From a virus (Duplodnaviria > Heunggongvirae > Uroviricota > Caudoviricetes), in the IMG/VR virus record IMGVR_UViG_3300013104_000019, positions 23,474 to 87,473 of that record: a stretch of DNA of 64,000 nt, one strand, 5' to 3'. The position numbers and the translations under genes were made by a program. The notes beneath the pieces are model-generated. The model ran no database searches, had not been told where the DNA came from, and saw only the letters and a list, made by a program, of their open reading frames with translations. This document shows, one piece after another, positions 18,388-56,642 of the stretch (position 1 is the first letter of the stretch; each line of letters starts with the position of its first letter).

Positions 18388-18416
18388 TTATATATAACTT
18401 TCCCGAGCTGGTAACC
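18388..18416 (+). promoter_or_regulatory. promoter-like conserved motif, copy A (TTATATATAACTTTCCCGAGCTGGTAACC)
   Basis: About 26 nt nearly identical to the copy at 50216, ~105 nt upstream of the adhesin-like gene. Confidence 0.45.
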
Positions 18417-18522
18417 CAGTCAGCTTGATTCATGCTTTTGGTTCATTGATTAGGTATCGGGGGCCTAATCTCTTATTGACCATCTCCGACAATCAAACCA
18501 ATGAAAAAGGAATAGAAGAACC

Positions 18523-20256
18523 ATGAAGAAGCAAGTTATTATTTCCACTGTTCTCCTTAGCTTGATTTCCGGTACGGCTTTTGCCAATTGCGGAAACGGG
18601 AACAACAACGGCAACGGCAACGGTTGTAATGGTGCTGGTACGCCGGGTCCGGTGGGGCCACAAGGGCCGCAAGGGCCGCAAGGCATCCAAGGCGTCCCCG
18701 GTAAGGACGGCAAGGATGGTGCATCTGTGACGGGCGTCAACATCTCCGGTACCACGGTGACGACGACGCTCTCCAATGGCTCGACGGTGAACGGCACGGT
18801 TTCCGGGCTCGCCACCACGCAAGACCTGAACAAGGTCGATGCTAAAGCCACCGCAGCACTGGGTCTGGGTTCCAGTGCACTGGCAGCTGCACAAGACGCT
18901 GATCGTGATGCAGACCGCGCGCAGGCTACCGCCAACACCGCGCTGTCGAATTCGAAGACGGCTCTGTCGCAATCGTCGACCGCACTGAGCAATTCGCAGA
19001 CGGCCATCAACACGGCCAATGACGCGAAGAACATCGCTCAGGGCGCTGACGCGAAGTCCAACACGGCAATCGGTATCGCCACCGGCGCAGCTATCACCGC
19101 AACGGGAGCAGCCATTGTCGCAGGTCACGCAGAAGGCGTGGCAGAAGGTGCAGCAGCAACGGCCAATGCAGCGCAAGCCCAATCGGCCGCCAACTCGCAA
19201 GCGATCAAGAACGAAGCCGCTGCTCGCGCAGCTGGCGACGCCGCGACGCTTTTCTCGGCCAAGTCGTACGCCGATGCGGGTGACGCAGCTACGCTCAAGG
19301 CTGCGAATCAACACGCCGATCAAGCAGCGGCGGCAGCGTATGTGGGTGCGGTGGCAACATCGGCCGCTTACACGGACGCAGTCGCTGGCAAGACGCTGAA
19401 TTCGGCGAAGTCCTACACGGACAAGCAAGTCGGTGCCGAGTCCACTCGTGCCCAGAACGCTGAAAGCCAGCTGCAAGCGAACATCAACTCGGAATCGAAT
19501 CGCGCTCAAACGGCTGAAGCCGGCTTGAACACGAAGATCGACAACGAGACGACACGCGCCCAAGCTGCGGAAAGCACCCTGAGCACGGCCATCACCACCG
19601 AATCGTCGCGTGCACAAGCGGCGGAATCGACGCTGAACACCAAGATCAGCAACGAAACCACCCGCGCGACCACCGCTGAAGCTGGCCTGCAAAACCAGAT
19701 CAACGGCAACACGCAGTCGATCAACAGCCTGAACAACTGGGCCAACAACGTCGACAAGGGCGTGGTCGGTGCAGGCGCACAGGTGTCGAGCAACAACTCG
19801 GTGGCGCTCGGCGCGAACTCGGTCGCAGATCGCGACAACACGGTGTCGGTCGGCTCAGCCGGCCACGAACGCCAAATCACCAACGTAGCGGCTGGTACGG
19901 CCAGCACGGACGCGGTGAACGTCGCGCAATTGAAGTCAATGGGTCAGCAGTCGTATGCAGCTTCGGCGGCTTACACCGATCAGCGCATCAACGGCGTGCA
20001 GCAACAGCTGAACGACTTCCAGAAGGACACCTACGGCGGCCTCGCTTCGGTACTGGCCATCGCGGGTCTGCCGCAACCGACGCAACCGGGCAAGTCGATG
20101 ATCTCCGCCGGCGTGTCGAACTACCATGGTCAGCAAGGTTTTGCCGTCGGTGTCTCGCACATCACCGGCGACAATCGCTTCGTGCTGAAGATGGGTGTGT
20201 CGACCAGCACGCGTGGTGAAGTCGCTGCACAAGCTTCGGGCGGCTGGCAGTTCTAA
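18523..20256 (+). CDS. trimeric-autotransporter-adhesin-like protein with collagen-like repeats and YadA-type C-terminal anchor
   Basis: Signal peptide [50 protein letters not shown] collagen triplet run. Long Ala-rich stalk with repeated S/TxRAQxAEsxL units. C-terminus [15 protein letters not shown]...[33 protein letters not shown]...GGWQF matches the YadA-like membrane-anchor pattern. RBS aaaaaggaatagaagaaccATG. Confidence 0.75.
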
Positions 20257-20270
20257 GGTGTTGCAGTAAA

Positions 20271-20326
20271 GGTGGTGTAGAGCGAGGGGAGCATTCCTTA
20301 CTCTACACCACTGGCTTCTCTTTTTT
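20271..20326 (+). terminator. intrinsic terminator (long-loop hairpin)
   Basis: ggtgtagag...ctctacacc then cttctcttttttc. Confidence 0.55.
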
Positions 20327-20333
20327 CACCATG

Positions 20334-20354
20334 ATATTCGAAGGAACAATAATG
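20334..20354 (+). promoter_or_regulatory. ATTCGAAGGAA leader motif, copy 1
   Basis: atATTCGAAGGAACaataATG. Confidence 0.45.
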
Positions 20355-20636
20355 AAAGCAATTAGCACGAAAGGACTCATCCTGCGCATGGCCCTTGCCT
20401 TCGCAGTCGTAGTGGTAGTGTTGCAAGCTTACCCGGCACATGCCGGTGAGTTCAGCTATCCGGGACAGAATCTCGGCAAGATTTTCCAGCAGGGCGATAT
20501 TGCTGCCCAACAGAACAAACACCTCATGCCGAACCCCATCGCGCCCATTGGTCGGGTTCGTTATCACGAGCAGCATCAAAACCTTTCTCAGCAACCGAAC
20601 GCCGATCTGATCGAGCAGAACAAACCGAAGGAGTAA
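20352..20636 (+). CDS. small secreted protein (signal peptide)
   Basis: Trimmed to MKAISTKGLILRMALAFAVVVVVLQAYPAHA (signal peptide), preceded by the ATTCGAAGGAAC motif plus RBS. Confidence 0.5.
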   Translation: MKAISTKGLILRMALAFAVVVVVLQAYPAHAGEFSYPGQNLGKIFQQGDIAAQQNKHLMPNPIAPIGRVRYHEQHQNLSQQPNADLIEQNKPKE

Positions 20637-20641
20637 GTATC

Positions 20642-20998
20642 ATGAGCGATACGTTTAGCCCGTTTGCACCGTCGCTGACGGATGAAGAGAAGATTGCACG
20701 TGGTCGGGAAATCTTCGAAGACATCATCAAGAACGTCCCCAGTAAGAAGGAAACGATCCCGATCCTTGCGTGGGTGATCGTTGCAACGTCGGGTGAGTTG
20801 CCGATGATGTTCTTCAAGGAAGATAAGACATGGTCGGGTGACGTCAAGGACGCCAAGCAGAGCACGATCGATGAATGCGTGGCGAACTACACCCAGATCA
20901 CGCAAGAACAGAATTACCCGTCGATTTATCAAGGTGCAGAAACCAAAATCGACATCCGGCCTCTGATTGTGGGTCCGGGCGGCATGGTTAAGCTGTAA
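20642..20998 (+). CDS. hypothetical protein
   Basis: RBS aaggagtaagtatcATG; terminator follows. Confidence 0.55.
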   Translation: MSDTFSPFAPSLTDEEKIARGREIFEDIIKNVPSKKETIPILAWVIVATSGELPMMFFKEDKTWSGDVKDAKQSTIDECVANYTQITQEQNYPSIYQGAETKIDIRPLIVGPGGMVKL

Positions 20999-21001
20999 GG
21001 T

Positions 21002-55267: not shown

Positions 55268-55301
55268 GAACTCCCTCTTCTTCGTATGAGGGTAGTCAAC
55301 C

Positions 55302-55326
55302 TTTTATGAAATTCGAATAAATTAGG
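55302..55326 (+). promoter_or_regulatory. second copy of the (T)ATGAAATTCGAATAA motif
   Basis: ttttatgAAATTCGAATAAattagg, upstream of 55342. Confidence 0.45.
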
Positions 55327-55341
55327 ACCAAGGGGTATCAC

Positions 55342-55653
55342 ATGAGCGCCGTTGCTGTGAAGTGGAGTAATGTCGAATTGCATGGCTTCTGGTTCGTCAC
55401 CAACTTCTTGCGGGAAGAAGGACTCGACGACTTCGGAGTAAAGGCGGTCATGGATGACCTCAACATGCAATACGAAAAATACCGGAAAACACAAACCGGT
55501 AGAAACGACTTCGGGCCGGACTTCAAGTTCGACACCGAATATAAGCCGTACATCGGCAGGATTCAGATGATCGATCCGGTCACCAAGCACTGCTTTGGTG
55601 AGACGCACGTCTGTTTCGAAGACAACGGTGGAGTCTCCATTCTGCCGTTCTGA
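55342..55653 (+). CDS. hypothetical protein
   Basis: Preceded by the TATGAAATTCGAATAA palindrome motif; terminator follows. Confidence 0.5.
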   Translation: MSAVAVKWSNVELHGFWFVTNFLREEGLDDFGVKAVMDDLNMQYEKYRKTQTGRNDFGPDFKFDTEYKPYIGRIQMIDPVTKHCFGETHVCFEDNGGVSILPF

Positions 55654-55663
55654 CCAACACGGG

Positions 55664-55695
55664 GCCCGGTGTGAAAATCACCGGGCTTTATGCCC
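55664..55695 (+). terminator. intrinsic terminator with TTTATGCC tail
   Basis: gcccggtgtgaaaatcaccgggc then tttatgccc. Confidence 0.7.
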
Positions 55696-55719
55696 TTAAG
55701 TAATCTTGGAGCAAAAGAA

Positions 55720-56595
55720 ATGCAGCCCAACAGAAAAGCAGTCTTGTTGTCGGATGAAGAAGCCTGTGCGCGCTATGGCAAAATCATCGAGATGGTCCGT
55801 TGCGGGTCTCGGTTGCTCGCCGCTGACGTGAAGAAGTATCTGGATGAGATCTGCTGGGAACCCGAAGTTATTCGGGAGGCTCTTAACAAGGCGGCCGACT
55901 CAGCTCAATTTCCTTTCGGACGAGCAATGTTCATGGCCACGTTCACGGCAGGGTCAACACTGGCGCTGATCGCTACCGCTCACGTTGATCGACAACCTTC
56001 GCCGCTCTCGCTGACCTTTATGCTTAAATTGGAAGAACGCGAGAATGTGTTCAAGATCAGCAAGCTTCTATCGTACAATCCGTCCCGGCCGTTCGCACCT
56101 CAATGGCAAGATCAGAGCAGGGGGCAGTTCTCCCATCCCCGTCTGGGTGTGATGGAAGCTGGCTACAACCCCGGCCAGCCTTACGGTCCCGGACCTAACG
56201 GCTATCCTGGCTTCCGGACTTCGGTATTCAATCCGGGTGTCGGTTTTGTCAAGCAAAGCCAGATCGATCTGTTGGTGACTTCTTTCGAAGAAATCAAGCC
56301 GTACTTCGAGATCCTCGAAAAGCGACACTTCGATACGCAACACGAGATGGCGATTTTCGAAACCATCATGCAACGCTCGTGTGGTCCGGATCTGCGAGCT
56401 TATTGGCGCTTCAACATGATCGGCCGTTGGGATGAAGGGCAAGACGCCGGTGCTCGACTTCTGCTCGAAACTTACGAAGTGGGACACGAGGGCGAAGAAA
56501 CCAAGATCTCCTCGTATCAGACGGCATTCGGTACTTACCTCGACGGCATTCCGCCCGGACACTCGACGATGCAACCTCCGTACTCGTCGATCTAA
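55720..56595 (+). CDS. hypothetical protein
   Basis: Trimmed to MQPNRK after ggagcaaaagaaATG. Confidence 0.55.
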   Translation: MQPNRKAVLLSDEEACARYGKIIEMVRCGSRLLAADVKKYLDEICWEPEVIREALNKAADSAQFPFGRAMFMATFTAGSTLALIATAHVDRQPSPLSLTFMLKLEERENVFKISKLLSYNPSRPFAPQWQDQSRGQFSHPRLGVMEAGYNPGQPYGPGPNGYPGFRTSVFNPGVGFVKQSQIDLLVTSFEEIKPYFEILEKRHFDTQHEMAIFETIMQRSCGPDLRAYWRFNMIGRWDEGQDAGARLLLETYEVGHEGEETKISSYQTAFGTYLDGIPPGHSTMQPPYSSI

Positions 56596-56611
56596 GTCGC
56601 ACTGTAGAAAG

Positions 56612-56642
56612 TTTCAGTCACATATAACCTTGTCGATATTGG
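56612..56642 (+). promoter_or_regulatory. related motif C (TTTCAGTCACATATAACCTTGTCGATATTGG)
   Basis: Shares the CATATAACCTT core with A and B, and TTTCAGTCACATAT with D. Confidence 0.4.

Follow-up and report, generated by a model that had tools for sequence, protein, structure and literature searches.

Jumbo phages that encode their own RNA polymerases each carry a conserved AT-rich motif near position -10 before their early operons (PMC7598289; PMC13282480), and reviews point out that these early promoters vary between phages. In phiKZ, AR9 and phiR1-37 the early promoters were confirmed by transcript mapping, and the polymerase packaged in the virion was inferred to be their reader (PMC7598289; PMC13282480). 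The published phiKZ early consensus is tatattaaaaaaaatttaagatgTATATTACaaatgtG (PMC12676376 Table S1), with 28-32 early promoters in that phage, one of them at PHIKZ054, and the AR9 early promoters have the geometry ...TATATTAT-6N-G (PMC5312081). Here we describe a motif found at five sites, called A to E, in a stretch of 64,000 nucleotides (nt) from an uncultured phage of the Caudoviricetes (positions 23,474 to 87,473 of IMG/VR virus record IMGVR_UViG_3300013104_000019; hereafter the window). An earlier note on this DNA, made from the sequence alone, had proposed the sites as phage-specific promoters. We consider it likely that they are the early promoters of a phiKZ-like jumbo phage, read by an injected virion RNA polymerase.

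A long element at five intergenic sites

Alignment of the five sites on ATAT(A/T)AC gave a 17-nt block, TTTYRRTYAYATATWAC, which has exactly five exact matches in the window (at 18382, 23628, 33631, 50209 and 56612), all on the + strand, and which was matched in none of 100 dinucleotide-preserving shuffles (0 expected by chance). CATATWAC by itself occurs five times in the window, against 1.18 expected. The full element covers about 36 nt and reads ATTCtAgA, a T-run, TTTCAGTCAC, ATAT(A/T)AC, six bases and GA; with ATTCtAgA and the T-run it reaches about 20 nt 5' of the core, and on the 3' side it extends to the conserved GA. The spacer between core and GA is six bases long in A to D and five in E. 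No sixth site was found in the window, whether by a position matrix built from the five sites (next score 12, against at least 36 for the five), by a relaxed scan for the core or by a matrix trained on phiKZ promoters.

All five copies listed in the earlier note were recovered where it had placed them. The likeness of A and B at 23 of 28 positions and the exact 14-mer common to C and D were borne out from the sequence, and E, described as a weaker relative, is the weakest copy. The octamer CATAT(A/T)AC, said to be present in every copy, is found in B to E but not in A, which reads TATATAAC rather than CATATAAC; the core shared by all is ATAT(A/T)AC.

According to a gene model based on codon usage, nearly all genes up to about 58 kb lie on the + strand, and the five sites all fall in gaps between genes, as the earlier note had it, and point in the same direction as the genes downstream. 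Counted from the predicted start, the 5' untranslated region (UTR) would measure 118 nt at A, before the gene of a YadA-like adhesin (18523-20256); 37 nt at E, before a gene of 164 amino acids (aa; 23688-24182); 20 nt at D, before the ATG at 33674 of a 125-aa gene; 87 nt at B, which leads a run of same-strand genes (50319-56595) including those of a helix-turn-helix (HTH) protein (53120) and of a protein resembling the C-terminal domain of the RNA polymerase alpha subunit (alpha-CTD; 54836); and 56 nt at C, before a 382-aa gene (56691-57839). Taken from the motif coordinates of the earlier note, the distance to the next start is 43-135 nt and not 40-110 nt as given there. Apart from the adhesin-like gene after site A, the genes 3' of the sites are mostly small orphans without structural annotation. 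The claim that every copy follows a terminator has to be narrowed: it applies to D and E, where the terminators are strong, and B is preceded by a modest hairpin, but upstream of A and C the comparison of folding with that of shuffled sequences gave nothing above chance.

The motif in phiKZ, AR9 and uncultured relatives

In the phiKZ genome, TATATTAC was found 33 times on the main coding strand and nine times on the other; the 33 main-strand copies have conserved flanks, and one of them lies 80 nt before PHIKZ054. When the window motif is aligned without gaps to the phiKZ consensus, the two share ATT at positions -20 to -18 relative to the core, A at -15, TTT at -9 to -7 and AG at -5 and -4, and the alignment continues through (T/C)ATAT(T/A)AC and six bases to a G present in both. 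We then scanned both strands of the window, about 128,000 positions, with a 42-nt matrix for which 26 phiKZ sites were the sole training set: D, B and C ranked second, third and fourth and A 11th, with E outside the top 12. The earlier note had suggested comparing the copies with the promoter consensus of related phages, and the outcome of that comparison is an in-register match to the phiKZ early consensus.

The phiKZ early promoters have the same architecture as the window sites, namely an upstream ATT..A, a T-run, an AT-rich 8-mer ending in AC, six bases and a G. Their placement is also the same: they are intergenic, oriented with the genes, often located right behind a TTATG-tailed hairpin terminator, and followed by small non-structural genes. 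The differences are in detail. The window core begins with C instead of T and has A or T as its sixth base; the TTTCAGTCAC block takes the place of the AT-rich TTTAAACAG or TTTAAGATC of phiKZ; the genome has a GC content of 53%, compared with 37% in phiKZ; and phiKZ has about 30 sites, whereas about seven are known here, from sequence alone. The early promoters of AR9 (AAATATATATTAT-6N-G; 41 sites; PMC5312081) likewise combine an AT-rich element near -10 with a six-base spacer to a G and a virion-delivered polymerase. AR9, however, belongs to a more distant lineage without a phage nucleus and has uracil in its DNA, and in its motif the last base is T and the TTTCAGTCAC block is absent.

We looked for the motif in IMG/VR. 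Among the matches listed for an exact 14-mer most are chance occurrences, and the informative subset consists of large contigs in which the flanks are conserved on both sides. Across 25 distinct instances, positions that had not been part of the search pattern are strongly conserved: all 25 have A at core position -15, six bases ahead of the TTT, the core and its six-base spacer are followed by G in 23 and then by A in 22, and ATTCtAgA stands upstream. A stricter degenerate pattern of 31 nt retrieved 60 stretches of IMG/VR, for the most part on contigs of 100-430 kb, and several contigs have two to four sites. Only 35% of 48 distinct instances fall inside an open reading frame of at least 100 codons, compared with 88% of random positions in the same loci. 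At many of these loci a phiKZ-type polymerase subunit, capsid, terminase or sheath gene adjoins the motif. A near-identical element of 30-36 nt (ATTCTAGA, a T-run, TTTCAGTCACATAT, six to eight bases and GA) is common to many uncultured phiKZ-like phages that are otherwise diverged and differ widely in GC content.

One of these genomes, contig IMGVR_UViG_3300048915_000145 (244,615 bp), overlaps the window and is 98.5% identical to it. Sites A (at its locus L148) to D are present there, and E falls outside the strict search pattern; its copy of site B has three differences, all at positions that vary in the family consensus. Two further strict sites lie outside the window in this relative, one of them 5.2 kb to the left of the window and before a run of very small genes.

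The genes that follow the window sites are orphans, and homologous positions were for this reason examined through the slot behind the capsid gene. The gene after site C has relatives only in the near-identical contig, and most window genes have no homologues in the loci that were fetched. In phiKZ, in Ralstonia phage FLC4-3B and in four uncultured phages (loci L133, L149, L165 and L124), the order behind the capsid gene is a hairpin terminator ending in a TATGCC-type tail, the motif, and the genes that lead to a gp123-type polymerase subunit. Relatives thus carry the same class of motif in the same syntenic slot, and the copy in this phage's own slot is degenerate; the earlier note had named absence from homologous positions in relatives as a finding that would speak against promoters.

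FLC4-3B (LC819007), whose closest relative is the phiKZ-related phage RP12 (PMC11530567), was reached by short-motif BLAST against cultured phages, which otherwise gave weak matches; in Erwinia phage pEa_SNUABM_37, for example, there was one weak site in 40 kb. FLC4-3B has annotated beta and beta' subunits and more than 20 sites of the form CATATTACTAnnnTGA, that is (a/c)aCATAT(T/C)ACTAnnnTGA, preceded by gaAat..aAaga, all on the gene-bearing strand. It resembles the window phage in GC content (56%), in the core CATATTAC, in the downstream TAnnnTGA, in strand and in the slot after the capsid gene, and differs in the upstream half, where gaAat..aAaga replaces the ATTCTAGA and then TTTCAGTCAC of the window motif. 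These predicted sites were identified in the present analysis, and the genome paper (PMC11530567) does not describe them.

The phage and the polymerase that would read the sites

The window comes from contig k141_3246846 of ENA ERZ27252462 (244,894 bp) and crosses the ends of that contig with an overlap of 141 nt, the assembler k-mer. It follows that the assembly is circular, with a length of about 244.75 kb, and the genome is probably complete. By the evidence of its genes and of its phiKZ-type terminators (Table 1), the phage is a phiKZ-like, Chimalliviridae-type jumbo phage. Among the window proteins are a phiKZ gp175-type prohead protease (Peptidase_S80) and a virion protein of 964 aa, all relatives of which, at about 31% identity, belong to jumbo phages. 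Just past its right end come a divergent DnaB gene, a small gene, a PhiKZ_MCP capsid gene, a 383-aa gene and a 523-aa gene, and the product of the last is 38% identical over 546 aa to gp87, an RNA polymerase beta subunit of FLC4-3B (E = 3e-110). The order of the DnaB, PhiKZ_MCP and 523-aa genes is that of phiKZ gp118, gp120 and gp123, the last being a subunit of the non-virion polymerase. A full-length homologue of the gp178-type subunit of the virion polymerase was recognized, from a gp178-type alignment, on the 98.5% relative (locus L196), and gp178 homologues are encoded by at least 124 IMG/VR contigs; the virion polymerase gene is not among the 8.5 kb to the left of the window beside the protease. 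The phage would accordingly encode both polymerase sets, virion and non-virion, with one subunit of each identified, the gp178-type one in the relative. A megablast search with 15 kb of the window against cultured phages returned no close cultured relative.

In our proposal, a multisubunit RNA polymerase packaged in the virion and injected with the DNA would bind the 36-nt element, with ATTC-A-A near -33 to -27, the T-run and TTTCAGTCAC at about -25 to -13, and the core ATAT(A/T)AC ending at -7. Transcription would begin at the conserved G seven bases past the core (Table 1; 23650 or 23651 at site E). A start at this G places the AT-rich core at -14 to -7, in agreement with the description of such elements as centred near -10. 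Each site would restart transcription after the preceding gene, most clearly at D and E, where it would do so behind a terminator, and would drive a block of small genes of the host-takeover type, orphans for the most part. Where transcription starts, that it is early, and which polymerase performs it are inferred from sequence comparison. The idea of phage-specific promoters put forward in the earlier note is supported by the co-oriented intergenic sites, by the in-register phiKZ early consensus and by the syntenic slot shared with relatives.

Several observations weigh against this proposal. About seven sites are known in a genome of 245 kb, the part outside the window having been sampled only, compared with about 30 in phiKZ. 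The gene that site A would drive, at the edge of a structural module, encodes an adhesin-like protein of 577 aa, an unusual early cargo. The phage's own capsid-gene slot contains a terminator and a degenerate, A-rich copy of the motif (CATATATC; …AAAACAAAAATAAACATATATC…; …GATCGAAAACAAAAATAAACATATATCatctccTT…) without the GA. The gp178 homologue was read from the 98.5% relative and not from the contig of the window itself, and the start sites, the timing and the polymerase are all deduced from homology. Finally, the phiKZ relatives RSL2 and RSF1 still need the host RNA polymerase (PMC5468394), so that independence from the host should not be assumed.

One could imagine that the sites serve the non-virion polymerase made after infection, as promoters of a middle or continuous class. 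The phage does encode a gp123-type non-virion subunit, some genes of AR9 and phiKZ have later promoters in addition to an early one, and the gene behind site A adjoins the structural module. However, the published middle and late signals of phiKZ are of another kind (TACT or a weak AT-rich element near -22 to -24, TATG at the start), whereas the window motif fits the early consensus in both sequence and register, and we regard this assignment as improbable. The chances are smaller still that host RNA polymerase reads the sites after being redirected by a phage factor, for which the HTH protein (53120) and the free-standing alpha-CTD-like protein (54836) encoded in the window would be the candidates, and which would recall the rifampicin sensitivity of RSL2 and RSF1 (PMC5468394). 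Both candidate genes lie 3' of site B and for that reason cannot initiate the programme; the 53120 protein showed no sigma domain; the -10-like hexamer has C as its sixth base, where sigma-70 requires T, with no -35 hexamer at 16-18 nt; and in phiKZ the same class of motif is read by the virion polymerase (PMC7598289, PMC13282480). The earlier note had suggested the protein at 53120, as a sigma-like factor, or a modified host polymerase as reader, a suggestion that we do not retain: the matches of the protein are all weak, generic HTH ones, the sites do not resemble sigma-70 promoters, and the lineage has polymerases of its own.

The remaining alternative is that the motif belongs to a duplicated regulatory cassette that is no promoter, such as an operator bound by a DNA-binding protein, a conserved leader or processing site in the RNA, or a hotspot of recombination comparable to the T4-type promoter-stem-loop cassettes that flank mobile genes. 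It would account for the sequence GAGyTGGTAAg that A, B and one copy outside the window (L157) share after the core, for the perfect 9-bp palindrome overlapped by site D, for leaders that are on average more structured than shuffles (mean z = -1.05), and for flanking genes that are mostly orphans, as in plastic regions of genomes. The palindrome, however, exists at D only, and conservation peaks 5' of the predicted start and holds across phages with unrelated flanks, a pattern to be expected of a DNA signal that a conserved enzyme reads and not of a transcribed element. The roles of cassette and promoter are moreover compatible with each other, and we hold a purely non-promoter function to be very unlikely. 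A further point concerns the form of the motif, which is one contiguous block, as in the promoters of T7-type single-subunit polymerases, where a conserved block of about 20 nt reaches into the transcript; no such polymerase was found among the window proteins scanned, and homology with the phiKZ early promoters would make a T7-type reading unnecessary.

Two candidates were set aside in the course of this work. The product of 53120-53614 was rejected as a sigma factor, its HTH matches being below the Pfam cut-offs and without sigma-70 region 2 or 4 and without a PHROG or PDB relative; in a scan limited to the larger proteins of the window, no sigma-factor domain was found. The sites were also rejected as sigma-70 promoters: compared with the sigma-70 hexamers TTGACA (-35) and TATAAT (-10), all five sites have C as the last base of the -10-like hexamer (TATAAC or TATTAC) and no -35-like hexamer at the proper 16-18 nt, and a scan of the window for the sigma-70 consensus gave eight matches, against 5.9 +/- 2.1 expected, with B and C not among them.

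If the sites are early promoters of the virion polymerase, as we propose, they are a known kind of signal in an uncultured phage, which helps annotation and involves no new mechanism. They provide a map of the gene blocks that are probably expressed first in this 245-kb phage: the operon at 50.3-56.6 kb, the 382-aa gene at 56.7 kb, the blocks at 23.7 and 33.7 kb, and the adhesin-like gene. The extended consensus is usable to predict early regulons in many uncultured phiKZ-like contigs, and the natural variation of the promoters within the clade could address how a virion polymerase without sigma factor recognizes its promoters.

Leaders, terminators and neighbouring genes

The coordinates of the sites and of the features around them are collected in Table 1.

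Table 1. The five promoter-like sites and associated features (window coordinates, except for the last row; predicted starts and folds are computed from the sequence)
Feature	Position	Strand	Description
Site A	18371..18406	+	ATTCTAAAACGTTTCGGTTATATATAACTTTCCCGA; core TATATAAC 18391-18398; predicted start G 18405
Site E, weakest copy	23617..23651	+	core CATATTAC 23637-23644; GA one base nearer, 23650-23651
Site D	33620..33655	+	core CATATTAC 33640-33647; predicted start G 33654
Site B	50198..50233	+	AATCTAGATTTTTTCAATTACATATAACCTTCGCGA; core CATATAAC 50218-50225; predicted start G 50232
Site C	56601..56636	+	core CATATAAC 56621-56628; predicted start G 56635
Terminator before site E	23564..23610	+	long GC-rich hairpin, then TTATGCCGT tail; -26.5 kcal/mol, z = -4.63
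Intrinsic terminator directly 5' of site D	33592..33620	+	GGGGUC UUCG GACCCC and T-run; z = -2.25
Perfect 9-bp inverted repeat at site D	33643..33669	+	ATTACTCCT 33643-33651, AGGAGTAAT 33661-33669
Site B leader	50234..50296	+	5' hairpin 50234-50251; strong hairpin 50255-50290 with TATGCCCT tail; -27.8 kcal/mol, z = -4.53
phiKZ-type terminators (nine)	13159, 23602, 32540, 38992, 40753, 41553, 48540, 54803, 55687	+	GC-rich hairpin, then (T)TTATGCC(G/C)T
phiKZ-type terminator	near 58240	-	one copy
Second motif	34082, 49563, 50299, 51744, 53093, 54816, 56661	+	(T)TACATTCGAA
Second motif, relaxed copies	20334, 35969, 55309	+	(T)TACATTCGAA
Degenerate slot copy	L181 ~2950-3010, ~5 kb past the right end of the window	-	

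The terminator motif of phiKZ ends in YTTATKYYGT (PMC10914365), and the terminator tails of the window, TTATGCCGT included, match it. A tail of the (T)TTATGCC(G/C)T type also precedes the promoter motif in many related phages.

The inverted repeat at site D has its left arm within the promoter core, and its right arm is the Shine-Dalgarno sequence of the gene at 33674. RNA from position 33636 folds at -11.3 kcal/mol (z = -2.6), whereas RNA from the predicted start at 33654 is unstructured (-1.3 kcal/mol). As the left arm lies 5' of the predicted start, the hairpin could be formed only by RNA begun upstream. Read-through transcripts would thus hide the ribosome-binding site in a 9-bp hairpin and transcripts initiated at the promoter would leave it free, and this predicted folding suggests a translational switch. 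Translational switches in which a hairpin hides the ribosome-binding site are found in the T4 late genes e (lysozyme) and soc. There, as would be the case at site D, the hairpin forms only in transcripts begun upstream, and the local promoter starts inside it; the T4 promoters, however, are late ones used by a modified host polymerase, whereas site D would be an early promoter of a virion polymerase, and it is a single site with a fold prediction.

In the leader of site B, the strong hairpin before the start codon at 50319 looks like a terminator within the 5' UTR, as judged by its predicted fold. Terminators within 5' UTRs have been reported for phiKZ (PMC10914365), and the one at site B may similarly be conditional and give a short leader RNA. 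The predicted transcript of site B opens a hairpin at +3, and at sites E and C 5'-terminal hairpins (GAGUUC/GAACUC and GAUAUUG/CAGUAUC, respectively) open at the predicted start. Over 50 leaders of the family the mean z was -1.05 relative to shuffles, and in half of them a pair opens within +1 to +4, although the control region was confounded by terminators; leader hairpins as a trait of the family are only suggestive.

A second motif on the + strand, (T)TACATTCGAA, often running into GGAA, has seven matches with at most one mismatch in the window, against 1.13 expected. Most copies lie 10-30 nt 5' of start codons (34102, 50319, 53120, 54836 and 56691); the copy at 54816 is immediately 3' of a terminator, and the motif is also present in the leaders of two promoter copies outside the window. 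It could be an element of the ribosome-binding-site context or a second class of promoter.

Two features were mildly unexpected, the near identity of so long an element across many diverged uncultured phages and the hairpin at site D. We speculate, while thinking it rather unlikely, that the shared element reflects a conserved DNA-reading module of the virion polymerase and that, separately, the site D hairpin, the terminator in the site B leader and TTACATTCGAA by the start codons amount to an undescribed control acting after initiation. If such a module existed, a comparison of promoter variants with polymerase sequences across the clade could point to the determinant of promoter specificity.

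Some of the neighbouring genes deserve mention. In the operon after site B, the free-standing 143-aa protein encoded at 54836-55267 (+) has a C-terminal half that corresponds to the RNA polymerase alpha-CTD (PF03118, 36.6 bits against a cut-off of 23.8; PDB 1doq, E = 4.6e-6), and it might be a decoy that interferes with host transcription. The 224-aa protein of 22882-23556 (+) is similar to an internal fragment of the phiKZ-type major capsid protein (phrog_3231, E = 3e-10); its tblastn matches fall within the capsid genes of the uncultured phages of loci L165, L133 and L149, and its gene is distant from the real capsid gene. The 577-aa product of 18523-20256 (+), behind site A, is a YadA-like trimeric autotransporter adhesin with stalk and membrane-anchor domains. 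Its gene has a local GC content of 57%, compared with 52-53% in the surroundings, and appears to have been acquired; its expression, in a lytic jumbo phage, would be early.

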